Part shown: piece by piece, positions 25,654 through 48,892 of the stretch
Numbering within the stretch: the stretch's first letter is position 1
How the letters are laid out: each line of letters begins with the position of its first letter
From: Planctomycetota bacterium
Lineage (GTDB): Bacteria > Planctomycetota > SZUA-567 > H5-PLA8
Assembly (NCBI GenBank): GCA_015075375.1
Contig: JABTUM010000001.1
Coordinates: forward strand, 117,201-181,200
Length of the DNA stretch: 64,000 bases
Reading direction: 5' to 3'
The notes under the pieces: generated by a model
Database searches by the model: none
Told to the model about the DNA's origin: nothing
Seen by the model: only the letters and a program-made list of their open reading frames with translations
Translations under genes and position numbers: made by a program

Positions 25654-25684
25654 CCCGGGATCCCGGCGCGTCCCGATTCGTCCA

Positions 25685-26992: not shown

Positions 26993-27009
26993 ACCGCTGT
27001 TCCTTGCCG

Positions 27010-28182: not shown

Positions 28183-28206
28183 GCCGCCAGCCTCCCAAGG
28201 CCGCGC

Positions 28207-28497
28207 CTAGACGCGCGCGCCGCCCGCCGTAATCTCCGGCTGCAGACGCAACACATCTCCTTCACGGATGCCGGCCTGGGTCAGCGTCTCCTCATCGAGC
28301 AACTGCCGCCCGCTGGCTTTATGGTGAAACTTGTAACTCATCAACTGTCCGTCCGGACTGTGGCGCGGAAGGTTCATACGATCCACCAGCAGCACGATGA
28401 TGCGATTGACCGACGCTTGGCCCGGCAGGCTGACCACGGCCTTCTTGTTGCCGGTCGCGTCCCAGACTTCCACACTGATGTTGCCTGCATCGCTCAC
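28207..28497 (-). CDS. ubiquitin-like beta-grasp protein ending in GG followed by a 3-residue tail (precursor-like)
   Basis: The 96-aa protein ends ..DVLRLQPEITAGG-ARV-stop. Its length and hydrophobic periodicity (ISVEVWDATGNKKAVVSL..) fit a beta-grasp fold. It lies immediately upstream of the E1. Its start ATG overlaps the stop of the previous gene (ATGA). Confidence 0.65.
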   Translation of the reverse strand: MSDAGNISVEVWDATGNKKAVVSLPGQASVNRIIVLLVDRMNLPRHSPDGQLMSYKFHHKASGRQLLDEETLTQAGIREGDVLRLQPEITAGGARV

Positions 28498-29537
28498 GAA
28501 CCGACCTCCCGGCGCCTGGCCAGCGCCTTGTCCAGATCGCCTTCGATGGAACCGTCGAGCAGGTACCAGCGCCCTTCGTGGCGTATGAACGCCTTGCGTA
28601 CGACCACATCTTCCTTCTGCTGGAAAATCAGGATCAGGATTACCGCGATCCAGAGGCTCAGCAGGATGCTAAGCATCAGGAGGCTGTTGTAGGTGGTCAA
28701 TTTGAGGTTCGCCTCGACCACCGCCACCCCGTCGGTTTCCGGAAGAATGACGCGCACCTTATTGAGCTGGTAGTAGCGCACCCAATTGTTCTTACCCTGG
28801 AAGATCTCTTTCCAATAGGCGGCATACGATTTCACGTCCGAAAACGGTCTTCGCTGTGGGTGATTGGGAATCTTCGGATTCTTGAAGGCAATCGACGGCG
28901 GATGCTCCGCTTGTCGCGCCGGCGGAATCAACGCGGCGAACGCCTTTCCGGTACGACCCGTCTTTACCGCCATGAAGAAGCGCTTGTACGCCTGTATCGG
29001 GCCTTCGGACTCCTGCAGGTGCATCGCATTGCGGTCGTTGAAAAACGAAACGAGCGTCGGGATGCCGAAACAGAGTCCCAATATGATCCCAAATGCCAGC
29101 GCAGGCTCGCCGTTACGCGACATCGCTCCGAATGCCAGCAGCGCCAGGCTCGCAAGAGTCAGTACGCCCAGCGCGATGGTCTTGCCCGACCACATGCCGC
29201 CACGCAACACGTCGTCCTGAGCCGGAGAATGCCGAGCCAACTCGCCACGAATCAGATCCAGCGCCTTCGCCAGTTCCTCGTTCGACATGGCCGTCGAAGC
29301 CAGGGACTCGCCGCAATGAGGGCACCTGCGGGCGCCGGCGGGAATGGGCTCCGCGCAGGCAGGGCAGGAAATCGTGCCGGCGTTGGGCGGAGCGGTCGGT
29401 GCATGAATCGGCGGTACGACAGGAGCTTCCGTCGCCAGAATCTGCGCGCCGCAGACTTGGCAGGTAACCGGCAGCCCTGCCAGCTCATCCTTGACGCGAA
29501 ACGTTTTCCCGCACGTACATTGGACCGAAATAGGCAT
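28494..29537 (-). CDS. membrane protein with N-terminal tandem zinc ribbons (first gene of the Ubl operon)
   Basis: The N-terminus has CTCG..CQVCG and CPAC..CPHCG ribbons. The second resembles ribbons in the two RING-like membrane proteins. Two TM helices follow. The start is trimmed to the ATG at 29537 (MPISVQ). Confidence 0.55.
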   Translation of the reverse strand: MPISVQCTCGKTFRVKDELAGLPVTCQVCGAQILATEAPVVPPIHAPTAPPNAGTISCPACAEPIPAGARRCPHCGESLASTAMSNEELAKALDLIRGELARHSPAQDDVLRGGMWSGKTIALGVLTLASLALLAFGAMSRNGEPALAFGIILGLCFGIPTLVSFFNDRNAMHLQESEGPIQAYKRFFMAVKTGRTGKAFAALIPPARQAEHPPSIAFKNPKIPNHPQRRPFSDVKSYAAYWKEIFQGKNNWVRYYQLNKVRVILPETDGVAVVEANLKLTTYNSLLMLSILLSLWIAVILILIFQQKEDVVVRKAFIRHEGRWYLLDGSIEGDLDKALARRREVGS

Positions 29538-29898
29538 TCGCCGCCGTCCTGTATGGAATCCGTTCAAGCACTATAAAATTTGTGTGCGGCCATGCTATAG
29601 GACGTATAGGTAGTAGCAAGAGCATCCGACTTCACATGTAAGCAAAGCACCGTTTGCATCCAGCCTCGACTGCACACGTGAAGGCTTGCCGCAGCTTGAA
29701 GAAGTAGGTCCCGAATCAAGCCGTCGGCACAGCTCGCAAAATTATTATGGGATTGTCTCGCCCGCCGCGACAAGTATCTGCCTTTCGAACCGATTCGCGC
29801 ACGCAAGGCCCGCAGACGGTCATTTTCGCGCGTGAGCCCTTTCCTGTTTTTCAGGATGTGATAGGTTTCCGGAATCAAAAATTAAAAGGAGTTCCCTT

Positions 29899-35444: not shown

Positions 35445-38400
35445 TCACCCACGAGTATGCCGCTCGTGGGAAGCAAGGAACGCCTTGCGATCCTTGCTGC
35501 CGCCCGTGTGCCGCGTGTTTTGTTGCAATCGCTCCACATGCTCCACGACGACCGTGACCACGCCGAACTCCTCCTCCGCTTTTCCGGACAGCAGAAACGG
35601 CCCGCCCAGACCCAGGCTGTCGCAGTACCGCGCATAGGCGCGCGGAAAAAAAGTGGTCTCGATCAGCCCCGTCTCGTCCTCGAAGGTGAGAAATTCCATC
35701 GGCTCGCCGCGCCGGGTGTGAACCACCTTGCCGGTAATCAGCCAACCGGCCAGGCAAACCCGCCGCCCGGCGCAGCGCTGCAGTGCGGCGGCCTTGACGA
35801 GATGGTCGGGAAGGAGTGCGCGGAACAGTTCCAGCGGATGTTGGTCGCACAGGAAACCGAGCACGTCGAACTCTCCGCGCAGCCGTTCCATCTCGGAAGT
35901 CGGCGTCAGGGCGGGTGGCGCGTTATCTTCCGCGGCATCGAAGAGGTTGGGGGCGGCCGCGCGCGCGGTGCGCTTGCGGCGCCCATGCCGCCAGGCGGCC
36001 AACTCCCAAAGCAGCGCGACGCGATCCCGCCCCGGCTCCAGGCCGTCGCACGCCCCCGCGCGTATCAAGGCGCGAGCCTCGGCTTCGTCGGGGCGCACGC
36101 GCTCCAGGAAATCCGCCAGCGTACGGTACGGACCTTCCGCGCGGCGCGCGACGATGCGCTCCATCGTTTCGGCGCCCAGACCCTTAACCGAGAGCAGTCC
36201 CGTGCGCACGGCGCGGTCCTTGCCATGCCAGCGTACGTGCGACTCGTTCGCGTCGGGCGGCTGCACGGCCACACCCCAGCGCCGCGTCTCCGAGACATAG
36301 GCGAAGGCGTTGTAGAAACCGCCTTGATTGCTGATGACGGCGGCCATGAACTCGGCGGGATGATGGACCTTCAGGTACGCCGCCTGAAAACTCACGCGAG
36401 CGTAGCTGGCGCTGTGCGGCTTGCAGAACGAGTAGCCCGCGAAGGACATGATCATGTCCCACACCGCCTCCACGGTCTCGTTGGTGACGCCACGCGCCTT
36501 TGCTCCGGAGGCGAAGCGCGCGCGGTAGTCGGCCAGTTCGCGCTCCTTGTCCTTCTTCGAGAGCACCTTTCGCAGACGGTCGGCCTCGGTGTGATCGAAG
36601 CCCGCCAAGGCCATGGCGGCCTGCGAAACATGCTCCTGGTAAACCATGATGCCATAGCTCTCGTCCAGCACGTCGTTGAGGAGCGGATGGAACGGTTCCC
36701 ACGCGCCGCCACGCAGGCGCCGGATGTATTCGCGGATGTACTCGTTGGCGGCGGGCCGGACAAGGCTGGAGTGGATGACGAGGTGCGCGTAGTCGCCGCG
36801 CCCTGTCTTCTGCTGAAGCAGCCGCATGGCCGGGCTCTCGATGTAAAAACAGCCCATGGTCAGGCCCCGCGCGACGGCATCCTGTGTCGTCGAATCGTCC
36901 TCGGGTTCCCAACGCGCTTCGTCCAACGGCGTGCCGTTGGCGCGCAGGTTGGCTAGCGCGTCGCGGATCACGCCCAGGCTGCGGTTACCGAGCAGGTCGA
37001 TCTTGACCAGCCCCAGTTCCTCCGCGCCGTCCTTCTCCCACTGGACGATGGGCACGCCTTTCGGAGCCGTCTGAAGGGGCACGTACTCGGCGCTGGACCG
37101 GGGGGTGACGACGACGCCGCCCGAATGAACGGATAGGTAGCGCGGCACGCCAAGAATGCGCTGGGCCAGACGCAGGATATCCGGCCACGGCTCGGGAAAC
37201 TCCACGCGCCGCATCTCGGCCAAAGCCGCGAGGCTCTCCTGCAAGCCGCCCGTAGCGTCGTCGTCCTGCCAGAACCACGGGATACGCCCGGTCACGCGTT
37301 GGATCTCGCGGTCGGGCAGGCCGAAGACCTTCGCCACTTCGCGGATCGCCATGCGCGGCTGAAAAAGCACGTGGTTGCAGACCATGGCCGCGTGACCGGC
37401 GTATCGCGCCAGCACCTGTTCCAGTACGCCATCGCGCTCGTCCCAGGCGAAATCCACGTCGATGTCCGGGGGGTCGGTGCGGCCCGGATTCAGGAAACGC
37501 TCGAAGTAGAGGTTAAACTTGAGCGGACAGACGTTGGTGATGCCCAGACAGTACGCGACGATGGAGGCCGCCCCGGAACCCCGGCCGCAGATGCGGGGGC
37601 TCAGCCCCACGATCTCTTGGACCACCAGAAAGTAGTCCGCGAAGCCCTTGGCTTCGATGCTGTGCAGTTCGTGCTCGATGCGTGCCGTCATGCTGGCGTT
37701 GAGCGGCGCGCCGTAACGCTTGAGCGCCCCGGCATACGCGCGCTCCCGCAAAACCGCCGCCGCCGGCTGCCCAGACGAGTCGCGCCATTCGGGAAAAATG
37801 GAGCGCGTTTCCGGCCCGCTGAACGCGCAGCGCTCGGCGATCTCGTGCGTGGCGGCGAGGGCTTCGGGGCAAACCTCGAAACGGCGGCGATACGCCTCCG
37901 GCGGGGCCAGCCAGGCGTCCGGCGGAGCCACGTCGCCGGGAACCAGGCGCGAGACGGCGCTGTTGCGTTCGATGGCGCGCAGAACACGATGGACCTCGTG
38001 ATCCTCCGGGCTCAGCAGGAAGCTCCCCGGCACGGCCACGAGCGGGAGGTCGAACCGTTGGGCCGTCGCGCGCAGGACGCCGAAGTTTCCGGCGGGTTTA
38101 CGCGGCACGCCGGCGGCGACGCGCACGCCCGCGCCGTGCCAGGTCTCCAGAGCGGCCGGATCGTTGCACAAGACCGTCAACCCCGCCGCATGGCGCGGCA
38201 GCGCCGAAGCCAACTCGAAGGCCGCGTCGCGGTGGCGCGCCGTCAGCATCCGGCACAGGTTGCGGTAGCCCTCGGCGTTTTCGACCAGGCAGACGGCTCG
38301 GAGAAGCGAGGCGCGATCCGTCAGTTCCGCGCCGACGATGGGCGTCAACCCTTCGCGGCGGCAACTCTTCAAGAAGACGGGCAACCCGTACAGGTTGTCG

Positions 38401-38525
38401 GTATCGGTCAGCGCAAGCCGCGTATAGCCCATGCGCCGCGCGGTCCGGCACAGTTCCTCGACGCCCGGTGTGCCCCATAGCAGGGAGAAGTACGAGCGGA
38501 CACACAGAGGGATCATCGGCGTCAT
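35445..38525 (-). CDS. dnaE2: error-prone DNA polymerase III alpha-like subunit DnaE2 (ImuC)
   Basis: The PHP domain N-terminus MTPMIPLCVRSYFSLLWGTPGVEEL..ALTDTDNLYG is followed by the polymerase core. At about 1027 aa it lacks the DnaE1 C-terminal extension. It lies downstream of an imuB-like gene and lexA. The start is trimmed from the 1302-aa ORF, whose Arg-rich N-terminus is an overlap artefact. Confidence 0.85.
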   Translation of the reverse strand: MTPMIPLCVRSYFSLLWGTPGVEELCRTARRMGYTRLALTDTDNLYGLPVFLKSCRREGLTPIVGAELTDRASLLRAVCLVENAEGYRNLCRMLTARHRDAAFELASALPRHAAGLTVLCNDPAALETWHGAGVRVAAGVPRKPAGNFGVLRATAQRFDLPLVAVPGSFLLSPEDHEVHRVLRAIERNSAVSRLVPGDVAPPDAWLAPPEAYRRRFEVCPEALAATHEIAERCAFSGPETRSIFPEWRDSSGQPAAAVLRERAYAGALKRYGAPLNASMTARIEHELHSIEAKGFADYFLVVQEIVGLSPRICGRGSGAASIVAYCLGITNVCPLKFNLYFERFLNPGRTDPPDIDVDFAWDERDGVLEQVLARYAGHAAMVCNHVLFQPRMAIREVAKVFGLPDREIQRVTGRIPWFWQDDDATGGLQESLAALAEMRRVEFPEPWPDILRLAQRILGVPRYLSVHSGGVVVTPRSSAEYVPLQTAPKGVPIVQWEKDGAEELGLVKIDLLGNRSLGVIRDALANLRANGTPLDEARWEPEDDSTTQDAVARGLTMGCFYIESPAMRLLQQKTGRGDYAHLVIHSSLVRPAANEYIREYIRRLRGGAWEPFHPLLNDVLDESYGIMVYQEHVSQAAMALAGFDHTEADRLRKVLSKKDKERELADYRARFASGAKARGVTNETVEAVWDMIMSFAGYSFCKPHSASYARVSFQAAYLKVHHPAEFMAAVISNQGGFYNAFAYVSETRRWGVAVQPPDANESHVRWHGKDRAVRTGLLSVKGLGAETMERIVARRAEGPYRTLADFLERVRPDEAEARALIRAGACDGLEPGRDRVALLWELAAWRHGRRKRTARAAAPNLFDAAEDNAPPALTPTSEMERLRGEFDVLGFLCDQHPLELFRALLPDHLVKAAALQRCAGRRVCLAGWLITGKVVHTRRGEPMEFLTFEDETGLIETTFFPRAYARYCDSLGLGGPFLLSGKAEEEFGVVTVVVEHVERLQQNTRHTGGSKDRKAFLASHERHTRG

Positions 38526-39712
38526 CCGGCAGCCAGCGTGCGGCCCATGCGAACGGCGCACGCCCCGAACTTGGCGCGAATGGCATCCAGCGCCGCACAA
38601 AGGTCCGCCTCGTGCCGGGACGCACCCGCTGCTTCGGGAAACAGATCCAACTGCGCGGGCGGGTAGACCAAGCGGTCGCAGAGGAGCCGCAGATGCCGTA
38701 CGCGCATCCTGCGCGTCCAGGCGCGTTCGAGCGCCGCGCGGGTCAGCTCGAAGAGCCGGATGTCGCCCGCCGTGGCTTCGGTCGTCGTGGCGTTGCGGGA
38801 TACGCGCGCGCCGTCGGAATAATCCAGCAGCACGCCGACGCGACGCGCGGCCAGACCGCGCGCGCGCAGTTCTCGACCGGCACGCTCGGCCAGCGCGCAC
38901 GCCGCGCCCAGAACCGCCGGAGCGTCGTTGGTATCCGACGGGAATACGTGGTCTCCGGCGACCACGGGGGGCTTGCGGTCCACTGCCAGAACCGGGGCGG
39001 TGTCCACGCCGCGAACCGTCGCGTGAAGCTGAGCGGCGCGCGCCGGACTGCCTACCGCGACTTCGAGCTGCCGCGGCGAGAGCGCCGCCACCTCGCCCGC
39101 GCGCCATAGATGGAACTCGCGCAAACGAAACAAGTCGTCGCGCTCGATGCCAGGCACAAGCTGGATGGGCACCGGTTTCAGGGCGGCTTCCTCGTCGCCG
39201 AAGGCGATGTGGCGTTCGCCGTACGGCTTGACGAGCCGCGAGGCAACTTTGGCGACCAACTTGTTGGAGGCCACCGACCAGATCGGATGGAAGCCCAGAT
39301 CCCAACGGAACGACCGGCGGATGCGTTCGGCTACGTCCGGCACAGGCCCCCATAGCCGTCCGGTTCCGGTCATGTCGAGGAACAGATGGCCGTTCTCGTC
39401 GGCGGCCTCGATAAGCGGAGTGTAAGGCCGCGCACGTTCGATAAGCGCCAGCATGGCGCGCTCGTACCGGTCGCGGCGCAGCGGGAGCACCTCGGCGTCG
39501 CGCTCGATCCGCCTCGCGTGGTCCAGGCGCATACCTTTGCGCACGCCCGCGAGGAACGCCTCGTCGCTCATGTCGAAAACGCAGGCCCGCGCCGCGCCTT
39601 CCGGTGCGACGATCACCGGCCGCCCGCGCAAGCCCGGCGCCAGCACCCGTTCCACCGCGACGGCAAAGTCAGCCACGTTGAAGTGAATGATCGTACGAGG
39701 TTCACAGGCCAT
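38522..39712 (-). CDS. imuB: ImuB-like catalytically inactive Y-family DNA polymerase
   Basis: This is a Y-family fold. The N-terminus MACEPRTIIHFNVADFAVAVE carries N and A at the positions of the catalytic D-x-D of DinB (HVDMDAF), the ImuB hallmark. The start is trimmed to MACEP. The stop overlaps the dnaE2 start. Confidence 0.8.
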   Translation of the reverse strand: MACEPRTIIHFNVADFAVAVERVLAPGLRGRPVIVAPEGAARACVFDMSDEAFLAGVRKGMRLDHARRIERDAEVLPLRRDRYERAMLALIERARPYTPLIEAADENGHLFLDMTGTGRLWGPVPDVAERIRRSFRWDLGFHPIWSVASNKLVAKVASRLVKPYGERHIAFGDEEAALKPVPIQLVPGIERDDLFRLREFHLWRAGEVAALSPRQLEVAVGSPARAAQLHATVRGVDTAPVLAVDRKPPVVAGDHVFPSDTNDAPAVLGAACALAERAGRELRARGLAARRVGVLLDYSDGARVSRNATTTEATAGDIRLFELTRAALERAWTRRMRVRHLRLLCDRLVYPPAQLDLFPEAAGASRHEADLCAALDAIRAKFGACAVRMGRTLAAG

Positions 39713-39714
39713 GG

Positions 39715-40590
39715 TTAACGCGCCTCCCAGCCGCGCGCGCGCAGCAGTCGCCGCAGCGTCCAGGCGTTCTTGACCGCCTGCCCCCGCACGTGGTTGTTGA
39801 AGAAGATCACGCCGCGCAGCGCGGCCTGCGCCATCGGCTCGAGATACCGCACGATCCACTCGCTGAGTTCCGCGTCGGAGTACGAATAGTCGAACTTCCG
39901 CTCCATGCGCCCGGAGCCCCAGCCCTTCGCGTTGCGGCCGTGGAAGCGTGCGTAAAAAAGCCGCGCGTCCGTCACGCGCGCCAGCGGCGGGAAAAGCCCC
40001 GGCAAGTCCGGCTCGTCCACGGCGGCCAGAGTCACGCGCCGGCGCGCCAGTTCCCGGAAAACCCGTTCGTGGTTCCACGAGGCGTGCCGGAACTCGACGG
40101 CCACGGGCAGGCCCTCCAACGCATCGAGCAGCGCGGCAAGGTGCTTGCGATTCGCGGCGCTCCGGCTGAACTCCGGCGGAAACTGCGCGAGCACTGCCGC
40201 CAATTGCCTGGACTGCGCAAGCGGCGCGATGCCGTCGCGGTACTGCGCCGCTTGCGCCTTCCAGCCGCCGTCCACTTGATGCGTCAGCGTGCGCGTAAGC
40301 TTCGCGGCGAAGAGAAAACCGTCGGGAGCCTCGCGGCGCTGGCGCTCCACGGCGTCGGCCTTGGGCAACTGGTACCACGTGTAGTTCAACTCGACGGTGG
40401 AGAACTTCGACGCGTAATGGCGCAGCATGCGCGCGGTGCTCAAGCCCTCGGGATAAACGCCCGCCGCGATCCACTCGGGGTAGGAGTAGCCGCTGGTGCC
40501 GATCCAAAGCTCGGCGTTCGAGCTTTGTTCGGTATGCGCGGCGGCAAACGCTCCAGACGTGGCCTTTGGCGGCAACACGGATTCTCCCAC
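39715..40590 (-). CDS. DUF72 (YecE/UPF0759) family protein in the imuA position of the mutagenesis cassette
   Basis: The N-terminal motif LWIGTSGYSYPEWIAAGVYPEGL..LRHYASKFSTVELNYTWYQLP matches DUF72. The gene is packed tightly between lexA and imuB. Confidence 0.75.
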   Translation of the reverse strand: MGESVLPPKATSGAFAAAHTEQSSNAELWIGTSGYSYPEWIAAGVYPEGLSTARMLRHYASKFSTVELNYTWYQLPKADAVERQRREAPDGFLFAAKLTRTLTHQVDGGWKAQAAQYRDGIAPLAQSRQLAAVLAQFPPEFSRSAANRKHLAALLDALEGLPVAVEFRHASWNHERVFRELARRRVTLAAVDEPDLPGLFPPLARVTDARLFYARFHGRNAKGWGSGRMERKFDYSYSDAELSEWIVRYLEPMAQAALRGVIFFNNHVRGQAVKNAWTLRRLLRARGWEAR

Positions 40591-40595
40591 GGCAG

Positions 40596-41213
40596 CTACG
40601 CAAGTGTTCGGCGAACTTCGATAACTCGGCCCAGAATGGAAAGGCGTTCCGGGTCGGGCCGCAGTACGGGAAAGGCGGGGTGAGCAGGCCGCAATTCGAC
40701 CCGGCTTCCGCGCCGGTGAAAAAACTTCACGGTGGCCTCGTCGTCCACGAGCGCGACGACGACATGGCCATGCTCGGCGCTGGGCTGCCGGCGCACGATC
40801 ACCACATCGCCGGGCAAAATATGCGCTCCGCTCATGCTTTCGCCCTGCACGCGCAAAGCGAACAGGTTCTCGGGCGCGACGCGCGAACGAACCGCCAAGT
40901 AGCCTTCCACATCTTCCAAGGCGGGCTGGAACGCCCCCGCCTGCACACGCCCGAGGATCGGCACCTGCACGGTCGCGCCCGGCAGCGCCGCTTCCCCCGG
41001 CAGGCGCAGCCCGCGCGAGCGGCCTTCGTCACGCGCGAGCAGCCCGTCGCGCACCAGCCGCTCAAGCTGCTCCTGCGCGCTCTTGACGTTCTTGAAGCCG
41101 AGATGCGCCTGGACCTCGCGTACGGTCGGCGGCATCCCAGCCAGGATGCGTTCGCGGACGAAGGCATGGATGCGCGTGCGCGTGTCTTGAGCCACGGTGA
41201 GTCTCCACCCCAA
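40596..41213 (-). CDS. lexA: LexA repressor
   Basis: The N-terminal HTH (MPPTVREVQAHLGFKNVKSAQEQLERLVRDGLL) is followed by the S24 peptidase domain with a Ser-Lys dyad (QGESMSGAHI ... ATVKFF). The start is a TTG at 41213 or a GTG at 41195. Confidence 0.85.
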   Translation of the reverse strand: MGWRLTVAQDTRTRIHAFVRERILAGMPPTVREVQAHLGFKNVKSAQEQLERLVRDGLLARDEGRSRGLRLPGEAALPGATVQVPILGRVQAGAFQPALEDVEGYLAVRSRVAPENLFALRVQGESMSGAHILPGDVVIVRRQPSAEHGHVVVALVDDEATVKFFHRRGSRVELRPAHPAFPVLRPDPERLSILGRVIEVRRTLA

Positions 41214-41218
41214 GTAAT

Positions 41219-41246
41219 ACCCAACAAATGTTGGGTGTCAAGACAC
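41219..41246. promoter_or_regulatory. two overlapping perfect palindromes immediately upstream of lexA (candidate LexA operator)
   Basis: ACCCAACA-AA-TGTTGGGT (41219..41236) and GTGTC-AA-GACAC (41235..41246) are both perfect inverted repeats. They lie 6-33 nt upstream of the lexA start. Confidence 0.45.
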
Positions 41247-41599: not shown

Positions 41600-44500
41600 T
41601 CAAGGTTTCCAGGACGTTCCGGCCCGCCTTAGCCGTACGCGTTGTTCGCCGCCGGATGAGTCTGCTTCGATGCCGATAAGGAATTCGCTAACGACTCGTG
41701 GATCGCTGCGCGAATCGAGTACCGGAGCGATCCCAAAGCTGCCTGTGCCGGGTGTAGCAGGGAGCCAATTTGTAATAATCGTGAGCGTGGCGCGTCCGGC
41801 ATCCCATCGCAAGCTCGATACACCGGTCAGCGCCACGGTCTTGGGCCGCAGGTATTGTTGCAAACCTTCGCCAAGAATCACGAAACCCGTTGAGCCGACC
41901 GATCCGTCACCCACATCTTCTTCGTACTGACCCAGCCGAAGCGCCGCGCCGCCCGCACCCGCCGGATTAAATGGAGCACCGGCCATCGGCACGAACTGAA
42001 CCGTCGCCTGAACCCGCTGCTCCAAAACACCTTTTGAGGATCGTTGCGAAACGGCAGCCTTGGTTACGAAGAAAAGCCCGCCCGGAATCGGATGCTCGGG
42101 ACGAGCCAGGCGGAAAATTCCCTTACCCGAGGAGCCTACGCGTGAGCACGTGTATCGCGTGCCCAACAGCGCCAAACTCGACCAGCCTCCCGTGCCGCCA
42201 ATGCGCAGTGCTACCGGCACCATCACCAGTCGGTTCGAGATTCCCGCGGCATTCTCGGCACCCAATGCGTCAAGGCTCTCGGCCAAGTCTATGCCGCTAA
42301 GCGCCACACTCACCGCGCCCGTTTTCGGGCTGTACGTGACCTTTAGGTTCGGAATCGCTCCACGCGGCGACTGCCAGACGACCGAAGTGGATGACGATGA
42401 ACTGGGAGACGCCAGCGAAGCACTTGCCCCTCCTACGTCAACCTCGACCTGTTTCCCGGAAAGTTGCTCCGGATTCAGCCCAGCATCCAGCAAAGATTGG
42501 GCGTTAACCTTTCCGCTTAACGTGAACGAGTCCACATACGGGTGCGCGATCGTCTTCTTACCGAAGTTCAGCGTGTACTTCGTCTGGCTCACGAGCAACC
42601 CCGTGTGTTTGATCAGTCCCGTCACCTCCACGAACAGTTCCAACACGTCTTGCCCGCCCTCTTCGTCCGTCACCACCACCGTGACTCGGTACACCCCCGG
42701 CGCGGCGTAGATATGTTCGGGGTTCGGTTCCGTGGAAGTCTGCCCGTCTCCAAAGTCCCATAGCCAGGTGTGCGAATCGCCTGCGTCGGCGTCGGCCACT
42801 TCGGCAACGAAAGCAAACGGATCGCCGGGATCGGTGCCGAAGGGGCCGTCCGAGCCACCCATTACGGTCAGTTTCGGTAAGTCGTTCACGTTCCCCACGG
42901 TGATCGTGACCGCGGTGACGTTCGATTCCGCCCCCAGGGCGTCCACGGCGCGATACGTGAACCCATCGGATCCTTGGTAATCAGTGGCCGGCGTGTACGC
43001 AAAGGTGCCGTCCTCGTTCAGCGTAAAGGCCGCCGCGTGCGCGGGACTATCCACAAGCTCAGCGGTAATCGGCGTATTCGATTCGCCCGGCGCGCCGCCG
43101 TGCGCGTCGCTGTCGTTAGCGAGCACGGAAGTTCCTGTCAGCGCCGTGTCTTCACTCGTGCCATATAGGTCTGCCAACGTGACGGGCGCATCGTTGATTC
43201 CGTTGACGGTGAGCGTCACTATCGTATCGCTCGATGCCGAACCCAGCGCATCTACAGCGCGGTAACTGAAAACATCGGAGCCGTTGTACTCTGCGGCCGG
43301 CGTGTAGGTGAAGGTGCCATCCTCATTCAAGGTGAAGGCGGCCGCGTGCACGGGGCCATCCACAAGCTCAGCCGTAAGCGGCGTATTCGACTCGCCCGGC
43401 GCGCCGCCGTGCGCGTCGCTGTCGTTGGCGAGCACCGAACTTCCAGTCAGTAAGGTGTCCTCATTCGTGGTGTATGCGTCCGCTACGGTCACAGGAGAGT
43501 CGTTCAAACTCCCCACCGTGATCGTGACCGCGGTGACGTTCGATTCCGCCCCCAGGGCGTCCACGGCGCGATAGGTGAACCCATCGGAACCTTGGTAATC
43601 GGTGGCCGGCGTGTACGCAAAGGTGCCGTCCTCGTTCAGCGTAAAGGCCGCCGCGTGCGCGGGGCCATCCACAAGCTCAGCGGTAATCGGCGTATTCGAT
43701 TCGCCCGGTGCGCCGCCGTGCGCGTCGCTGTCGTTAGCGAGCACGGAGGTTCCAGTCAGCGCCGTGTCTTCATCCGTCGCGTAAGAGTCGGCGGTTGTGG
43801 CTGGCGCGCGATTGAGTTCGAAATCGAATTCCGCGTGCCCGCCCGCGTCGCCGTCCCCAGTCGGGAACGAATCGCCCCCACCGGAGTTTTCGCCGTCCAG
43901 CGCGTTACCGTCTAAGTCCTTCAGGCCTCCAGAAAGCAGGCGCAGACGGTACTTCCCCCGCGCCCATACGGTTGGGTTAAAGGTCGCACGTATGCGTTGT
44001 GGCGTTTCAAGGCTCAACGTTTCCAGGGGCACTGCGACGTCGTCGGCCGTGCCTAGCGCCTCGTCGTCGCCCGCGTACTGCAGCAGGATGCTCTCCGCGA
44101 TCGCACTATCCGCATCCAACGGTTCATCGAACTCAGCCACGACCTCCTGGGGCGGCGCGCCGAGCGGCCCCGGCGCCGGCAGCAGCGAGAGCACGCGCGG
44201 AGCCGGCGCAGCCACAGTAAAATCGGCCACAAAATCGCCGCCTTCTTCTCCGTCGCCCGATGGAAGACCGGAACCAAGATTGAATTCGCCATCGAGTGCG
44301 TAGCCCGACTCGCCGTAGATACTGTGGCTAGCTTCCACGATTTCCATCGAGGTGCTGGCCCCCGGCGTGTAGCCTTCCAAAAGCTCGATCGTATGGGTCC
44401 CAACGAACAGCCAGTCTAGATCCACTTGGCAGACCAGTCCCGTCGGCGTTAGCGTCAGCGTTCCCGTAGAAAAGATCCCCGGGCTCACGCGCACGCCAAA

Positions 44501-47500
44501 GCGCGCCGGAACGGATGAGGTTGCTCCCGTTCCGGACCACGTGGGAAGATGGGCGCCGGCGATGACGAGTTCTATGACGCTGCCTTTTGCGGCCGCGCGT
44601 GGCACCGCCGCATGCAGCACCGGAGGGGGCGTCACTTCGAACCCGCCGGGTAATAATGCTTCCACTCCGTCAGGATTGATCAGCACCACGTCCCATGTCC
44701 CGGGAAAGCACCCGGCGAGATTCAGATCGAATTCCAGGCTGCCCGCCCCGATTAGCCGTTCGTTCGTCGCGGCGATCTTTGGTTGTCCTTCCATCCTCAA
44801 CTCGACCTGCGGGGGTATGCGCTTCACATATTCGCAAACGTACGGGCGCGAAGAAGCGGTAGTGTCTTTCCAGGACAGCCCATGGGCGTAGGCGACATAT
44901 TGTTCGGATGTGCTGTTCGGCTCTCCATCGGCCCACGCCGTGTATCCGACTGCTTCCCCATTATCCCACACGTTCGTTTCGGTTGCCGTCGGGTCGTTCA
45001 GCCCGATCCATCCGTTGGCACGCCCGTTTAGCCGCCAAACAAACTCATTCTCGGCCGCGTCGCCCAGCGTGACCAAGTGGCCGCCTTGGCTTGCACACTG
45101 CGACCGCGCGCTCGTCCAGGAAACGCCCTCCTTGATGTAACGGTAATACCTTCCAGCATAGGGAACCGCGCCCGCCGTATACGCAATACGGCCTTCCTGG
45201 AAGCCCGTCCCTGAAAGCACGATTTTGTCTGGACTACTGCCCGTCCACGATCCGCTCAAATCCACGCCAATCACTGTCGGCGTGGAAAGCGCCGAAGTCA
45301 CACTGAACTGAAACGCGGCGGACGCCGGTAGGGCATTGCCGAATCGGTCGCGTGCGGACGGAGTCTGGATCGTCACGGTGTACGTCGCGCCTGAATCCCA
45401 TAAGCCTGCGGGCGTGAACGTCAGCGTTCGATGATCCGACCAGACCCAGGTTCCCGATACCGTGCCACCGGTGATGCTGGCCACGTCTCCCGCCGCGACA
45501 CTCGTGTCCATCGGTTCGCTGAAGGAGACTATCAGATCCTGCCAACGAGGCGCATGACCGGGTGAGTCCCCGCAATAGAAGGATTCGACGCTCGGGGGGA
45601 GCGGATCTTGAAGCATGAAGCGCAAGTCCGTCATGTCCGTGCCGTCAGGGTTGGCGAATGCGAGGCTGAAGCGGTCCCCTCCCGTATCTTCATGGTGTTT
45701 GAGGAGGACTGAGTGCCAACCGGCCGCGAGAGGAATAACCGTATCGAGATCGCCCTGCGCGGAAAGAGGGTTGGAGTTCTGATCCACGAAAATCTGCAAC
45801 TCCCGGTCCGCATGCGCCAGGACGCGTACATCGCGGGCAGTGGGCGCGTACAGATAGAGCGCGGCATAGCCGACATAGTTATCGCCGAGGTCTTCGTGCC
45901 AATCCCCGTCGTCGTCGGCATCGGTCAGGTCAGTCCAGACCATCTGCGTAGTCGACGGTAAGCCGCGCATGGGGTAGTGCTGTCCGACGCTGGGCTGGTG
46001 GCGCTCCTCCGCGACTTCGCCCGAATAGATCATGTAGTCCCAAAGGATGTCCACGCCATCGGCGGGCGAACCGGTCATACGTCCGGTGCTTGGGCCCAGA
46101 TGCAGCAGGCGCTTTACCTTGCCCGCCGGGAGAGGGAAACCGTTCACGTTCAGCGTCACCGTGGCGATGGCGCTGTCGCCGTCGGAATCGCGCGCCACGT
46201 ACGTGAATGCGTCGGGGCCTTCGTATCCAGGCTCGGGCGTGTACGTAAAGGAGCCGTCAGGGCGTAGATCTAGCGTCCCGTGCGCGGGATCGCTCTGCTT
46301 AACGGCCTCGATGGGCCCGCCGTTGAAATCATCGTCGTTAGCTAGCACACCGCGGTACGAAGCGATCTCGTGGACCGGCGCGCCGGGCAAGTCGTAACGG
46401 TCGTTCTGAGTTACCGGCGGCGGATGAGCCAGATTAAGGATTTCCAGCGCGCTCAGCGCCCGCCCATACAAACGCGCATCGTCTATCCGTCCGGGCGTGC
46501 GGTTGGTTGCCGTACTGGTGCCTCCAATGAAGACGTTGTCGCTGCCGTACTCCAGCAAGCCGAAAAGGTGCGTTGCCTTGGCGCGCTCCTGGCCGTCTAC
46601 GTAGAGGATTGCGGCGCCCGATTCGGAATCGTATGTCGCGGCGAAGTGATGCCATTCGTTCAGATAGGCCGCGTTGAGCTGCGTATCGAACACGTATATA
46701 TCGGGCGCATTGACGCGATCGATTCGGAATTGGAGACGCCCGTCAGCGTGGCTCCAGCGCAGGAACGGACCAAGCGAGGATGAGCCGTTGCGCATCAGAT
46801 CCGAATGCTGTCCACTGCCGCTACGAGTCTGCGTCATACGCGCCCACAACGCGAAGGTGATCGCGTTGGCGGGTTTCAAACTGGGCGTGCTAAAGACCTG
46901 TACGTAGCCTAAGGTGTCCGGATAACTGGCTGCGAAACCCTCTGGGCTGGGCCCCCAGGTCGCACCGCTGGAAAGGATTGCCGTTCGACCCTTGCCCGAA
47001 CTGTCAGCCGACGATGAGCCAACACCCTCATTGAACTTCCAATGGCCCAGCGTATAGGTGTTTCCCGCCGGTGCGACGACGATCCGGACCGTGACTGCCT
47101 CCGAATACAAGCCTCCCGCCAGCACGCGGTAGGTGAAGGAGTCCTCGCCCGTGAAAAGGGCATGGGGCGTGTACTGCAGCGAGCCGTCGGCGTTCAGCGT
47201 CACGCTGCCGTTCGTGGGATCGCTCAACTTCTCGGCGTTCAGTTCGTCGCCGTTGACGTCCAAGTCGTTGACCAACACCCCGGGCGCCGGCTGGTTGAGC
47301 GGCATGTCTCGAGCCGTATACAACACGTCATTCTTGGCCATCGGCCCGACAGGCGCGAAGTCCGCTCTCAGATCCTCTTCGTTGATGGTACGGCCGTAGA
47401 TGCGTATATCGTCAAGTTGGCAGTGCGGCGGAAATACGGCGCTGCCGAATTGCGTGATGTGCGGCAGAGATGACCCGCTACCGGAGGTAAGAGCGGAATG

Positions 47501-48892
47501 GTAGCGGCCATTAATATAAAGCCGGTAGGGCCCCAAGCCCGGGTTGACAATCGCGATATGGACCCACTTATTTAGTGGCACCGTGTAATTGAAATAGTTC
47601 TTGATGTCGGCGTTTAGGTAGTCGGAAATGTACAGCTTACCCAGATCGTTCACGCCGATGCTCTGAAAATTCGGCGAAGAGGTGAAGTTCCCGAATGTCT
47701 GCTCGACCGAAATCTCGGCCAAGCGGTTGACCCAAAAGCTCACGGCTTGAGGCTGCGCGATCTCGCGCTCCAGCGTCACGACACGATGGGCGGCATCCAA
47801 CTGCAAAGCACCGGCAGCGATGCCGGGTATCCAGGCCGTATCGTCGGAAAGCGTGCCGGGATTGGGCAACGCGCCTAAGTCCGCGACCGCCGTACCCGTC
47901 ATCTCGTCGAACGGGTAATGCGATATCTGCCCGCCCAGGATCAGATAAACCGTCGCGGGTGCCGTAGTAAACGTGCCATCGCTGGCCGAGTAAGTGAACG
48001 AATCCAGTCCCCGATAGCCTCCGAAAGGCGTATACGAAAATTGACCGTTGGAGTTAACGCTCAGCGTACCGTGTTGCGGATCGCTCTCCTTTTGAGCCGT
48101 AATCGCGTCGCCGTTGGGATCGTACGCTCGATTGAGCACCCCGGGCAAAGTGGCCTGGAAGACCTCCTCGGAAGGCACCGAGAAATATCGATCCTTGATA
48201 ATCTGCGGCGGGAGCGGAGGAATCAGGTCCGCGACTTCCGTGCTGCCGAGCGCGCGGCTGTACAGCCGGAAGTCGTCGAGCGTACCTTTCAGAGTTCCTT
48301 CGCCGCCGCCGCCCAGATTCTGAATACTCAGGGCCATGCTTTTGCTCAGAGTGCTCTTAAGAGAACCGTCCACGTATAGCTGCGTAGTACTCCCGTTGCA
48401 GACGAATGCCAGATGCACCCATCTCCCGTCGATTGGCGCCGAATAAACGAAGCTGGAGAGAAAGTCGCCGGCGGTGCCGGTCGTACGCGTGATCCCGACA
48501 TTCATGTTCCAAGAAGGCCACTGCTCCAGCAGAATCTCGGAGGTAGGCGAGTAGACGATCTTGCTGTTCGAACCACCGCTGAATTCGCGACGCACCCACA
48601 CCGCCGCCGTCCACGGCGCAGGGATTTCCGGCACGTTCAAGCTCACGTGGTCGTCCACGCCGTCGAACTTCAGCCCGCCGCCCAAGAGGCCGGGCACCCA
48701 TTGCGGATTCTGAACCAAAGTCCCGTGGTAGGCGTTGGCGCTCTCGTCGAAGGCCGTCGGGCCGGACCCTTCGTCGAAGGTCAGGTGGACAACGAGATCG
48801 TCCTGCGCGGAAGCTGGAATACAGGCGAAACAGATGCAGGCCAGCAGCGCCAACCGCTGGAGCCATCCGTTTTCGATACCGTTTGCTTGCAT
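41600..48892 (-). CDS. giant secreted adhesin-like protein (2430 aa) with LamG/concanavalin-like, C-type lectin, PKD and tandem cadherin/Ig-like repeat domains
   Basis: A signal peptide MQANGIENGWLQRLALLACICFACIPASA is present. LamG-like regions (LDDFRLYSRAL, LDDIRIYGR) are interspersed. The C-type lectin segment is WTSARSQCASQGGHLVTLGDAAENEFV..WIGLND..YVCEY. The PKD segment is WDFGDGQTSTEPNPEHIYAAPGVYRVTVVVTDEEGG. Three to four near-identical roughly 100-aa repeats (TADSYATDEDTALTGTSVLANDSDAHGGAPGESNTPITAELVDGP..) also occur. Confidence 0.8.
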   Translation of the reverse strand: MQANGIENGWLQRLALLACICFACIPASAQDDLVVHLTFDEGSGPTAFDESANAYHGTLVQNPQWVPGLLGGGLKFDGVDDHVSLNVPEIPAPWTAAVWVRREFSGGSNSKIVYSPTSEILLEQWPSWNMNVGITRTTGTAGDFLSSFVYSAPIDGRWVHLAFVCNGSTTQLYVDGSLKSTLSKSMALSIQNLGGGGEGTLKGTLDDFRLYSRALGSTEVADLIPPLPPQIIKDRYFSVPSEEVFQATLPGVLNRAYDPNGDAITAQKESDPQHGTLSVNSNGQFSYTPFGGYRGLDSFTYSASDGTFTTAPATVYLILGGQISHYPFDEMTGTAVADLGALPNPGTLSDDTAWIPGIAAGALQLDAAHRVVTLEREIAQPQAVSFWVNRLAEISVEQTFGNFTSSPNFQSIGVNDLGKLYISDYLNADIKNYFNYTVPLNKWVHIAIVNPGLGPYRLYINGRYHSALTSGSGSSLPHITQFGSAVFPPHCQLDDIRIYGRTINEEDLRADFAPVGPMAKNDVLYTARDMPLNQPAPGVLVNDLDVNGDELNAEKLSDPTNGSVTLNADGSLQYTPHALFTGEDSFTYRVLAGGLYSEAVTVRIVVAPAGNTYTLGHWKFNEGVGSSSADSSGKGRTAILSSGATWGPSPEGFAASYPDTLGYVQVFSTPSLKPANAITFALWARMTQTRSGSGQHSDLMRNGSSSLGPFLRWSHADGRLQFRIDRVNAPDIYVFDTQLNAAYLNEWHHFAATYDSESGAAILYVDGQERAKATHLFGLLEYGSDNVFIGGTSTATNRTPGRIDDARLYGRALSALEILNLAHPPPVTQNDRYDLPGAPVHEIASYRGVLANDDDFNGGPIEAVKQSDPAHGTLDLRPDGSFTYTPEPGYEGPDAFTYVARDSDGDSAIATVTLNVNGFPLPAGKVKRLLHLGPSTGRMTGSPADGVDILWDYMIYSGEVAEERHQPSVGQHYPMRGLPSTTQMVWTDLTDADDDGDWHEDLGDNYVGYAALYLYAPTARDVRVLAHADRELQIFVDQNSNPLSAQGDLDTVIPLAAGWHSVLLKHHEDTGGDRFSLAFANPDGTDMTDLRFMLQDPLPPSVESFYCGDSPGHAPRWQDLIVSFSEPMDTSVAAGDVASITGGTVSGTWVWSDHRTLTFTPAGLWDSGATYTVTIQTPSARDRFGNALPASAAFQFSVTSALSTPTVIGVDLSGSWTGSSPDKIVLSGTGFQEGRIAYTAGAVPYAGRYYRYIKEGVSWTSARSQCASQGGHLVTLGDAAENEFVWRLNGRANGWIGLNDPTATETNVWDNGEAVGYTAWADGEPNSTSEQYVAYAHGLSWKDTTASSRPYVCEYVKRIPPQVELRMEGQPKIAATNERLIGAGSLEFDLNLAGCFPGTWDVVLINPDGVEALLPGGFEVTPPPVLHAAVPRAAAKGSVIELVIAGAHLPTWSGTGATSSVPARFGVRVSPGIFSTGTLTLTPTGLVCQVDLDWLFVGTHTIELLEGYTPGASTSMEIVEASHSIYGESGYALDGEFNLGSGLPSGDGEEGGDFVADFTVAAPAPRVLSLLPAPGPLGAPPQEVVAEFDEPLDADSAIAESILLQYAGDDEALGTADDVAVPLETLSLETPQRIRATFNPTVWARGKYRLRLLSGGLKDLDGNALDGENSGGGDSFPTGDGDAGGHAEFDFELNRAPATTADSYATDEDTALTGTSVLANDSDAHGGAPGESNTPITAELVDGPAHAAAFTLNEDGTFAYTPATDYQGSDGFTYRAVDALGAESNVTAVTITVGSLNDSPVTVADAYTTNEDTLLTGSSVLANDSDAHGGAPGESNTPLTAELVDGPVHAAAFTLNEDGTFTYTPAAEYNGSDVFSYRAVDALGSASSDTIVTLTVNGINDAPVTLADLYGTSEDTALTGTSVLANDSDAHGGAPGESNTPITAELVDSPAHAAAFTLNEDGTFAYTPATDYQGSDGFTYRAVDALGAESNVTAVTITVGNVNDLPKLTVMGGSDGPFGTDPGDPFAFVAEVADADAGDSHTWLWDFGDGQTSTEPNPEHIYAAPGVYRVTVVVTDEEGGQDVLELFVEVTGLIKHTGLLVSQTKYTLNFGKKTIAHPYVDSFTLSGKVNAQSLLDAGLNPEQLSGKQVEVDVGGASASLASPSSSSSTSVVWQSPRGAIPNLKVTYSPKTGAVSVALSGIDLAESLDALGAENAAGISNRLVMVPVALRIGGTGGWSSLALLGTRYTCSRVGSSGKGIFRLARPEHPIPGGLFFVTKAAVSQRSSKGVLEQRVQATVQFVPMAGAPFNPAGAGGAALRLGQYEEDVGDGSVGSTGFVILGEGLQQYLRPKTVALTGVSSLRWDAGRATLTIITNWLPATPGTGSFGIAPVLDSRSDPRVVSEFLIGIEADSSGGEQRVRLRRAGTSWKP
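42870..43810. repeat. roughly 300-bp near-identical tandem DNA repeats (3-4 copies) inside the adhesin gene
   Basis: The same protein block appears in overlapping plus-strand ORFs 42984.., 43308.. and 43592... The minus-strand product shows the repeats ..VLANDSDAHGGAPGESNTP.TAELVD.P.HAAAFTLNEDGTF.YTPA.. Confidence 0.7.

Follow-up and report, generated by a model that had tools for sequence, protein, structure and literature searches.

A DUF72 protein as a co-inherited component of an ImuA-less, LexA-linked iPolY–DnaE2 operon

The window analysed here, a 64-kb stretch of a 3.26-Mb contig, carries four genes arranged on the minus strand in the order lexA, DUF72, inactive Y-family polymerase (PolY) and dnaE2. 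All four were found where an earlier note on this DNA had placed them, and Pfam and NCBIfam profiles bear out the identities assigned there (lexA, DUF72, a Y-family protein and dnaE2). The features of the locus are as follows:

41214–41241, minus strand: putative promoter, with a −35 element TTGACA (41241–41236) and a −10-like element TATTAC (41219–41214)
41219–41236, minus strand: candidate LexA operator, a perfect 18-bp palindrome, ACCCAACA-TT-TGTTGGGT
40596–41213, minus strand: lexA, self-cleaving SOS repressor (Pfam and NCBIfam profiles, motifs)
39715–40590, minus strand: DUF72 (PF01904) TIM-barrel protein (Pfam PF01904, E = 5e-57)
38522–39712, minus strand: iPolY, gbDinB2-like, 396 amino acids (Pfam IMS and IMS_C)
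38639–38653, minus strand: predicted β-clamp-binding motif QLDLF, PolY residues 354–358 (motif consensus)
38540–38608, minus strand: RecA-NT-like motif ADLCAALDAIRAKFGACAVRMGR, PolY residues 369–391 (likeness to tabulated motifs)
35445–38525, minus strand: dnaE2-type C-family error-prone polymerase, 1026 amino acids (PHP, DNA_pol3_alpha, finger, HHH_6 and OB domains)

The junctions between the genes are tight, with Shine–Dalgarno sequences placed within the upstream genes. Read directly, 5 nt separate the lexA stop codon (TAG) from GTG 40590 of the DUF72 open reading frame. GTG 40578 or TTG 40575 is the more likely DUF72 start, because a GGGAG Shine–Dalgarno sequence precedes these codons, and the lexA–DUF72 gap would then be 17–20 nt; the NCBI annotation gives a 286-amino-acid form. 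The DUF72 stop codon (TAA) is separated by 2 nt from the PolY ATG, and the PolY stop and dnaE2 start share ATGA, a 4-nt overlap. The lexA–PolY interval holds DUF72 alone, imuA being absent from the operon, and an alternative frame over the DUF72 DNA (39713–40603) gave no Pfam match. More than 100 independent loci, with differing flanking genes, have these four genes in the same order, and the arrangement is therefore not due to chance.

The lexA product matches Peptidase_S24 (E = 9e-28) and LexA_DNA_bind (E = 2e-11) in Pfam and reaches equivalog level in NCBIfam (TIGR00498, 157 bits; cut-off 111). It contains the Ala-Gly cleavage site (VQAGAF, 40929–40946) and the Ser-Lys dyad, with Ser in GESMSG and Lys in ATVKFF. 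Its longest open reading frame begins at TTG 41213, but the true start is probably GTG 41195, which has GGAG just before it. The core of the candidate operator, CCAAC-N4-GTTGG, is a symmetric variant of the GAAC-N4-GTTC class, and the operator is the sole match at two or fewer mismatches within the window. Palindrome arms of 8 nt were reached in 56 of 2,000 dinucleotide shuffles of the 386-nt intergenic region, which alone is of modest significance; three relatives (L091, L001 and L004) have palindromes at the same promoter-spacer position and share the TTGxxx-palindrome-TATxxx layout. The putative promoter, whose spacer is filled by the candidate operator, was not reported by a consensus promoter scan, because its −10 hexamer lacks the final T. 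From the sequence we infer a promoter with an operator in its spacer, a palindrome through which the autocleavable LexA is predicted to repress the operon.

The Y-family protein is, by its residues, catalytically inactive, as the earlier note had stated, with its catalytic carboxylates lost: N12 stands where DinB has D8, and H109 where DinB has E104, and neither residue varies among 68 relatives. At the position of DinB F13 there is an alanine, which likewise does not vary in the 68 family members; D103 is a variable position. Relatives keep a Q-x-x-L-F-type motif at the place of the predicted clamp motif, where P351, Q354 and F358 are nearly or fully invariant. The motif ADLCAALDAIRAKFGACAVRMGR is kept in relatives and is close to RecA-NT strings tabulated for gbDinB2-like PolYs (for example, ...LSLALDAIRAKFGERAVLWGK); RecA binding through such a motif is a proposal of Timinskas & Venclovas 2019 (PMC6511836). 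The protein ends 5 residues past this motif and lacks an ImuB-C domain, a tail tabulated at 120–140 amino acids for canonical ImuBs (Timinskas & Venclovas 2019, PMC6511836). In a neighbour-joining tree, D. oleovorans ABW66046.1, which is classed as ‘gbDinB2-like (other_inactive)’ in Table S4, nests in the PolY clade of the window. By these features, PolY is assigned to the gbDinB2-like inactive group of the iPolY–DnaE2 variant, and would be ImuB-like in role, yet without ImuB-C. It would serve as an adaptor rather than a polymerase, because the catalytic carboxylates are lost and the QLDLF clamp motif and the RecA-NT-like motif are kept.

In roughly a third of bacteria, damage-induced mutagenesis and evolving drug resistance are driven by mutasomes of the DnaE2 type, whose accessory factors are still poorly defined. 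In the DnaE2 of the window, the palm aspartate motifs PDIDVDF (37449–37469) and LVKIDLLG (36987–37010) align with the catalytic motifs of Taq Pol III α, and the histidine motifs of the PHP domain are degenerate. The polymerase stops after its OB domain, without the τ-binding C-terminal domain, and scores under both NCBIfam cut-offs (578 against 939 for the error-prone model and 630 against 1002 for the Pol III α model); as a C-family enzyme with an intact palm and no τ-binding C-terminal domain, it is classed as a DnaE2.

The locus resembles the iPolY–DnaE2 mutasome (Timinskas & Venclovas, NAR 2019, PMC6511836) in having an inactive PolY of the same lineage with a RecA-NT-like motif and no ImuB-C, in an operon without imuA that has lexA upstream and dnaE2 downstream. 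In that study, D. oleovorans and Desulfocapsa are iPolY–DnaE2, gbDinB2-like members with the order ‘LexA->{1}->iPolY->DnaE2’, in genomes without imuA and with RecA-NT present. The Desulfobacterales gene {1} was neither identified nor discussed there; here it is DUF72, conserved in more than 100 loci. Unlike the window, most members tabulated in the study (Geobacter, Nitrospira, Pelobacter and Syntrophobacter) have an empty {1} position, and in the sister groups Geobacter and Nitrospira lexA is followed directly by iPolY, with no DUF72. In literature searches, no paper turned up that names DUF72 as part of DnaE2 cassettes.

Canonical ImuA–ImuB–DnaE2 (ImuABC) and mycobacterial ImuA′–ImuB–DnaE2 systems share with the locus a link to SOS and LexA and an inactive Y-family adaptor with a β-clamp motif beside DnaE2, and damage-induced mutagenesis would be the expected output. 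By contrast, the window has no ImuA or ImuA′ in the operon, a 396-amino-acid PolY without the approximately 120–140-amino-acid ImuB-C, and an extra DUF72. The earlier note had described a classic cassette with ImuB and with DUF72 in the imuA slot. Neither description held, since the lineage is an ImuA-less iPolY–DnaE2 variant and the supposed slot is empty in its other members; annotating the Y-family gene as imuB and DUF72 as an ‘ImuA replacement’ would be wrong, an error that the present assignment averts. Implicit in that note was a DUF72 that serves as a structural or regulatory mutasome subunit, doing the job of ImuA and/or ImuB-C and bridging iPolY, DnaE2 and RecA. The gene does lie between lexA and iPolY, the position of imuA in classic cassettes, its 2-nt gap to PolY is a layout of the translational-coupling type, and a missing DnaE2-binding module is conceivable in a PolY lineage that has neither ImuA nor ImuB-C.

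Conservation of the arrangement was assessed in genomes and metagenomes. Of 60 genome loci, 59 have PolY downstream of DUF72, and among the genome loci of the cassette DUF72, DnaE2 was present in 40 of 43 and LexA in 65 of 67. Of 48 metagenome loci, 45 have DUF72 ahead of PolY, and first look-ups of relatives gave the arrangement in 6 of 6. Pairwise distances correlate with r = 0.86 for both DUF72–PolY and DUF72–DnaE2, compared with 0.91 for PolY–DnaE2; co-inheritance nearly as tight as that between PolY and DnaE2 would also suit a mutasome subunit. DUF72 is thus a genuine, co-inherited component of one large iPolY–DnaE2 sub-clade, which comprises Desulfobacterales, Planctomycetota and Myxococcota, plus one Desulfosarcina plasmid, and its membership of the cassette, argued in the earlier note from the tight embedding of the gene, stands on these loci and correlations.

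Three isolated losses of DUF72 are nested in the PolY tree, and DUF72 is therefore dispensable for keeping the cassette. One loss is in the closest available relative of the window's cassette, L091 (LexA 71%, PolY 67% and DnaE2 69% identity). Absence from close relatives had been named beforehand as evidence against membership: the closest relative does lack DUF72, but its loss is isolated and one of three. That other cassettes in the window's PolY clade have survived without DUF72 speaks against a structural subunit. The losses would also suit a passenger, SOS-regulated or merely co-transcribed, that has a function outside translesion synthesis and has been carried along with the cassette through inheritance and horizontal transfer; sister iPolY–DnaE2 lineages without DUF72 and the unrelated contexts of most Burkholderiaceae-type DUF72 genes point the same way, and a single origin followed by inheritance could account for 59 of 60 loci. 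Such a passenger is nonetheless very unlikely, given the strong constraint on DUF72 (mean pairwise identity of 65%, above the 59% of PolY) and at least three independent cases in which DUF72 lies beside mutagenic-polymerase operons of different mechanism, at differing operon positions.

The DUF72 protein matches PF01904 above the gathering score and has a TM1631-like fold, a xylose-isomerase-like TIM barrel. The label DUF72/YecE-family, used in the earlier note, is right as to PF01904 membership, but YecE orthology fails, with 45.6 bits against a cut-off of 412 for the NCBIfam equivalog NF007637. The conserved putative active-site residues are E67, N69, W72, Y73, K97, H104, Q136 and E166 in the first half of the protein and R168, D192, R215, H217, R219, N220, N265 and N266 in the second. 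Residues N44, Y47/Y48, K72, H79, Q114, R145 and R191 of the TM1631 pocket were predicted to bind DNA phosphate (Konc et al.), and this pocket is invariant here as N69, W72/Y73, K97, H104, Q136, R168 and R215/R219. The solved DUF72s TM1631 (PDB 1VPQ) and EF0366 (1VPY, 1ZTV) are 35% and 28% identical to the window's DUF72; solved DUF72 structures contain no metal, according to the paper on TM1631, and the proposal that TM1631 is a DNA endonuclease is computational only (Konc et al.). Together the invariant residues make up a pocket of enzyme-like character, one that non-cassette DUF72s such as TM1631 have as well. This pocket, a fold unrelated to that of the RecA/SulA-like ImuA, and the lack of any clamp-binding or RecA-NT motif seen in the DUF72 sequence all argue against the subunit role.

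Endonuclease IV and UVDE are members of the xylose-isomerase-like superfamily. DUF72 lies outside their sequence families (no AP_endonuc_2 or UvdE Pfam match, even at E ≤ 1), the trinuclear metal site has no counterpart in DUF72 crystal structures, and DUF72 matches Endonuclease IV and UVDE no better than it does sugar isomerases, with no specific structural closeness relative to other TIM barrels. A lesion-processing role for DUF72 is therefore one that we only infer. To our knowledge, DUF72, a large family with solved structures, has no known function, and no biochemical activity is known for any of its members. Literature searches found no established role for DUF72 in translesion synthesis, in agreement with the earlier note.

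DUF72 recurs beside three unrelated types of mutagenic-polymerase operon. The order imuA-imuB-imuC-DUF72 is found in four Burkholderiaceae plasmids and a Trinickia chromosome, where a DUF72 of a clade distant from the cassette DUF72 is placed straight after the canonical genes; only 5–6 of the 17 Burkholderiaceae-clade DUF72 loci examined adjoin imuABC. The DnaE2 of the window is approximately 30% identical to Paraburkholderia ImuC. Because DUF72 co-occurs with ImuA in Burkholderiaceae, it is an add-on and no substitute for ImuA; and since it lies there after the polymerase gene, beside a full ImuA, an ImuB with its C-terminal extension and ImuC, we consider a DUF72 that does the job of ImuA or ImuB-C quite unlikely. 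PolB2 mutasome operons (Timinskas et al., CSBJ 2025, PMC11791011) encode a damage-inducible mutagenic polymerase, in bacteria often have lexA nearby, and can carry DUF72 directly ahead of the genes for the accessory proteins and the polymerase. They differ in encoding the B-family PolB2 with iRadA and PPB2, and DUF72 is present in 119 of about 1,885 PolB2 neighbourhoods (~6%; for example, SRAP-DUF72-iRadA-PPB2-PolB2), as against more than 90% in the clade of the window. On two plasmids, DUF72 lies near Ku/LigD. The substrate of DUF72 might instead be a nucleotide or small phosphorylated metabolite, as in sanitizing or adjusting the dNTP pool during SOS, which would help or restrain mutagenic synthesis indirectly. 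No nucleotide-metabolism genes lie alongside DUF72 in the loci examined, and its repeated placement by DNA-handling genes (three mutasome types, SRAP and Ku/LigD) is a simpler fit to a DNA substrate, which makes a metabolite substrate unlikely.

Our preferred reading, to which we give a probability of roughly 60%, is that the locus is a four-gene LexA-controlled SOS operon encoding an ImuA-less iPolY–DnaE2 mutasome together with DUF72 as an accessory enzyme that likely processes damaged DNA. DnaE2, its catalytic aspartates intact, would be the polymerase that copies past lesions, and RecA, drawn in through the RecA-NT motif, may stand in for ImuA, as the literature on relatives suggests. DUF72, a TIM barrel of enzyme-like character whose phosphate-binding, acidic pocket is conserved across the family, would have joined the cassette lineage and then been co-inherited. 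Most likely it would recognize lesions or abasic sites, incise DNA there or clean up the ends, and so make or tidy a primer-gap substrate that clamp-bound iPolY–DnaE2 fills mutagenically.

More tentatively, DUF72 may represent an unrecognized class of damage-processing enzyme, a lesion- or abasic-site-specific endonuclease or an end-cleaner, that serves iPolY–DnaE2, ImuABC and PolB2. If so, DUF72 would link the incision or processing of ends at a lesion to error-prone filling of the gap, adding an ‘incise-then-mutate’ step to bacterial SOS mutagenesis, and a very large orphan family, with E. coli YecE among its members, would gain a function. Inheritance within the DnaE2 lineage and recurrence beside ImuABC and PolB2 make DUF72 a testable candidate for a damage-processing partner of mutagenic polymerases. 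In the one DnaE2 operon lineage in which it is stably inherited, DUF72 extends over several phyla and is found also on a mobilizable plasmid.

Four co-directional minus-strand genes occupy positions 35445-41213 of the window, with a candidate operator beside the first of them.

35445-38525, minus strand: DnaE-type polymerase (DnaE2), 1026 aa, with PHP, Pol3-alpha, finger, HHH_6 and OB domains
38522-39712, minus strand: Y-family polymerase homologue (PolY), 396 aa, with IMS and IMS_C domains
39715-40590, minus strand: DUF72 protein, PF01904 (E = 5e-57)
40596-41213, minus strand: lexA, S24 and LexA DNA-binding domains, TIGR00498 at 157 bits (cut-off 111)
41219-41236: candidate LexA operator, a perfect palindrome of 18 bp, ACCCAACA-TT-TGTTGGGT, with core CCAAC-N4-GTTGG

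The gene junctions reported in the earlier note were confirmed by direct reading of the sequence. The lexA stop codon TAG is followed by 5 nt and a GTG, the DUF72 stop codon TAA by 2 nt and the ATG of PolY (GGGAGG upstream), and PolY and dnaE2 share an ATGA overlap. A DUF72 start at 40578 or 40575, behind a GGGAG Shine–Dalgarno sequence, is more likely than one at the first GTG; the NCBI annotation has a 286-aa form, and the alternative frame overlapping the gene gave no Pfam match. The lexA reading frame probably begins at the GTG at 41195 rather than at 41213, with GGAG upstream and an N-terminal length equal to that of E. coli LexA. The source record is annotated "MAG: Planctomycetes bacterium" and is a 3.26-Mb contig. 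The G+C content of the cassette (0.67-0.69, versus 0.60-0.62 in both flanks), together with a plasmid-borne copy and cross-phylum identities of 60-65%, is compatible with horizontal acquisition.

The earlier note had read these genes as the classic SOS mutagenesis cassette, with PolY as an inactive ImuB and DUF72 in the slot normally occupied by imuA. Two readings of the PolY active site agree, one from an HMMER comparison of PolY with DinB proteins of solved structure and one from an alignment of 69 sequences. N12 replaces D8 of DinB, alanine replaces the steric-gate F13, and G108-H109 stand where DinB has D103-E104; the residue at the D103 position varies, whereas the asparagine and histidine at the D8 and E104 positions are invariant in 68 of 68 relatives. 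These replacements at the catalytic site bear out the view that PolY is catalytically inactive. Its identification as canonical ImuB did not hold, as the C terminus consists of a QLDLF β-clamp-type motif followed by ADLCAALDAIRAKFGACAVRMGR, and the chain ends five residues further on. PolY instead matches the description of the "gbDinB2-like (other_inactive)" class, members of which carry a RecA-NT-like motif and form "iPolY-DnaE2" operons without ImuB-C; imuA is absent from both operon and genome, and RecA has been proposed to replace ImuA (Timinskas & Venclovas, PMC6511836). Table S4 of that study lists "LexA->iPolY->DnaE2" for Geobacter, Pelobacter, Syntrophobacter and Nitrospira, and "LexA->{1}->iPolY->DnaE2" for Desulfococcus oleovorans and Desulfocapsa sulfexigens. 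Because the D. oleovorans PolY nests inside the window's clade in a neighbour-joining tree, we identify the unnamed {1} as the DUF72 gene. In this lineage there is no imuA slot to be filled, and DUF72 stands as an extra gene rather than as a substitute.

The palm motifs of the polymerase itself, PDIDVDF and LVKIDLLG, line up with the motifs that hold the catalytic aspartates in Taq Pol III alpha. Its PHP histidine motifs are degenerate, and the chain ends past the OB fold with no tau-binding domain. Its score falls under both NCBIfam cut-offs and it is only ~30% identical to Paraburkholderia ImuC; its orthologues are named DnaE2 in Table S4 of PMC6511836.

DUF72 homologues with 60-73% identity are abundant, and all six that were looked up lie in lexA-DUF72-IMS-DnaE operons whose flanking genes are unrelated. 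A genome scan limited to a single genome for each species yielded 80 loci, mostly from Desulfobacterales but also from Planctomycetota, Myxococcota and Thermodesulfobacteriota. Among loci with sufficient flank, PolY lies downstream of DUF72 in 59 of 60, DnaE2 downstream in 40 of 43 and LexA upstream in 65 of 67. When a metagenome scan was seeded with PolY, DUF72 was found immediately upstream in 45 of 48 loci, LexA in 36 of 38 and DnaE2 in 53 of 53. This neighbourhood comparison upholds DUF72 as a genuine member of the cassette. In pairwise distance, DUF72 tracks both PolY and DnaE2 (r = 0.86 for each) nearly as closely as those two track each other (0.91); the correlation for LexA is looser (0.66-0.70). 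Desulfosarcina ovata 28bB2T, a cultured strain, also carries the cassette, on its mobilisable plasmid Do28_1 (L173, NZ_AP021877.1, 57258-72076), where RefSeq labels PolY as "hypothetical protein" and DnaE2 as "DNA polymerase III subunit alpha"; present pipelines therefore miss this iPolY-DnaE2 mutasome variant. A full bacterial-type cassette occurs on a contig binned in a 'Promethearchaeota archaeon' MAG (L028, JAIWHJ010000056.1), which indicates a binning error or transfer. In a Desulfobacterales MAG (L002, 5380-6177, minus strand), an AP_endonuc_2 gene, encoding a xylose-isomerase-like TIM barrel, is divergent from the cassette lexA.

Three PolY loci (L091, L119 and L165) lack DUF72. One of them, L091, is the nearest relative of the window cassette (identity of 71% for LexA, 67% for PolY and 69% for DnaE2), and its PolY follows lexA after a few tens of nucleotides with no DUF72 between. 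The absence from close relatives that the earlier note had held would count against its reading therefore does occur, in L091, although DUF72 is kept in the other 45 of the 48 PolY loci. Each of the three loci nests singly among DUF72-bearing cassettes in the neighbour-joining tree, marking three separate losses of DUF72 and not an ancestral absence. DUF72 occurs alone at a further locus (L050), and three loci (L037, L060 and L080) have no adjacent dnaE2. DUF72 is frequent and stably inherited, yet dispensable for retention of the cassette.

A tblastn search of plasmids revealed a distant DUF72 clade, ~30% identical to the window protein. DUF72 comes 10-30 nt after a canonical imuA-imuB-imuC in Paraburkholderia sp. 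D15 and P. acidisoli, and ~360 nt after imuC in Caballeronia grimmiae and Burkholderia sp. YI23; in Caballeronia sp. SBC2 it is divergent and near imuC. The order imuA-imuB-imuC-DUF72 recurs on the Trinickia violacea chromosome. DUF72 thus accompanies imuA in Burkholderiaceae, and we rejected the idea that it substitutes for ImuA. Only one of five Burkholderiaceae chromosomes looked up has imuABC beside DUF72, the other four showing unrelated contexts, so that this association is occasional and not obligatory. Burkholderiaceae-type DUF72 genes also lie near a PAPS-reductase-family gene (L177 and L179) and ~2 kb from Ku on P. graminis pPHS1_P (L176) and P. aromaticivorans pBN3 (L182), the latter also ~5 kb from LigD; Ku and LigD are non-homologous end-joining genes. 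In addition, Timinskas et al. (2025, PMC11791011) report that 119 of ~1885 PolB2 neighbourhoods contain DUF72, one such arrangement being SRAP-DUF72-iRadA-PPB2-PolB2. With the iPolY-DnaE2 and imuABC contexts counted in, DUF72 has thus joined mechanistically different damage-inducible mutagenic polymerases at least three times. Its operon position varies among polymerase types, and in one type it occurs together with ImuA.

The fold of DUF72 gives generic matches to xylose-isomerase-like TIM barrels: sugar epimerases at ~14, Endonuclease IV at 13.1 and 12.0, and UVDE at 11.5. A permissive Pfam scan (E ≤ 1) detected neither AP_endonuc_2 nor UvdE in the protein, and the close kinship to Endonuclease IV and UVDE stated in print extends no further than the superfamily. 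An invariant pocket (E67, N69, W72-Y73, K97, H104, Q136, E166, R168, D192, R215, H217, R219, N220 and N265-N266) is common to the window's clade, the Burkholderiaceae clade and the solved DUF72 structure TM1631, and within it fall the TM1631 residues that Konc et al. modelled to bind a DNA phosphate and flip two bases. Such family-wide invariance argues for DUF72 being an enzyme with family-wide chemistry rather than a scaffold. Because its genomic neighbours are mutasomes, SRAP and Ku/LigD, we infer that a DNA lesion is its substrate, as the simplest reading of these genes. A defence-system reading was dropped: PADLOC gave no matches for LexA, DUF72 or PolY, and PHROGs gave only an unannotated family.

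TTGACA and TATTAC, immediately upstream of lexA, flank the candidate operator (ACCCAACATTTGTTGGGT), which takes up the whole spacer; the operator core is a variant, symmetric in itself, of the LexA boxes of the GAAC-N4-GTTC class. The palindrome was found by script and was not reported by the repeat finder at the settings used; visual inspection, together with the sequences of relatives, gave the putative promoter. A sigma-70 consensus scan of 35.2-41.7 kb gave no promoter, and terminator-like sites there were at chance level. Alone, the palindrome is modestly unlikely, being reached in 56 of 2000 shuffles, and no second copy above chance was found in the 64-kb window. The TTGxxx-palindrome-TATxxx layout recurs in relatives with lineage-specific cores, as in L091 (ACCCGTAATATTACGGGT), L001 (CCGAACATGATGTACGG) and L004 (CGAACATTCGTTAG). 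LexA control of the cassette is likely, judging from these sequences. Three Desulfobacterales loci (L002, L008 and L013) have several TTTACAT direct repeats with a period of ~11-12 nt, and no palindrome, upstream of lexA; these could represent another kind of LexA operator, particular to that lineage.

A literature search linked DUF72 to none of imuB, dnaE2 or imuA, the one co-occurrence being DUF721, in agreement with the earlier statement that DUF72 has no established role in translesion synthesis. The iPolY-DnaE2 system is already known, with DUF72 printed only as the unnamed "{1}", and the sole published hint of a connection to translesion synthesis is the 2025 PolB2 note (PMC11791011). 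The orphan DUF72 family thereby gains a specific hypothesis that is experimentally approachable in a cultured host.

Elsewhere in the window, a 2430-aa open reading frame (41600-48892, minus strand) ends ~390 nt upstream of lexA. Repeats of ~100 aa within its product are almost identical to one another (VLANDSDAHGGAPGESNTP...), a pattern characteristic of giant surface or adhesin-like proteins. Four minus-strand matches to the Acido-Lenti-1 RNA (Rfam RF01687; 50912-50957, 52575-52620, 53581-53626 and 55475-55520; 43-46 bits, gathering score 37) sit in a ~7-kb stretch (49.9-57.2 kb) with no ORF ≥250 aa, a lower G+C content (0.53-0.57) and strongly negative GC skew. Finally, genes at 24553-29567 (minus strand) encode an FHA/YscD-like protein, a JAB/MPN peptidase, a ThiF/E1-like enzyme and a zinc-ribbon protein, and resemble a bacterial ubiquitin-like conjugation cluster.
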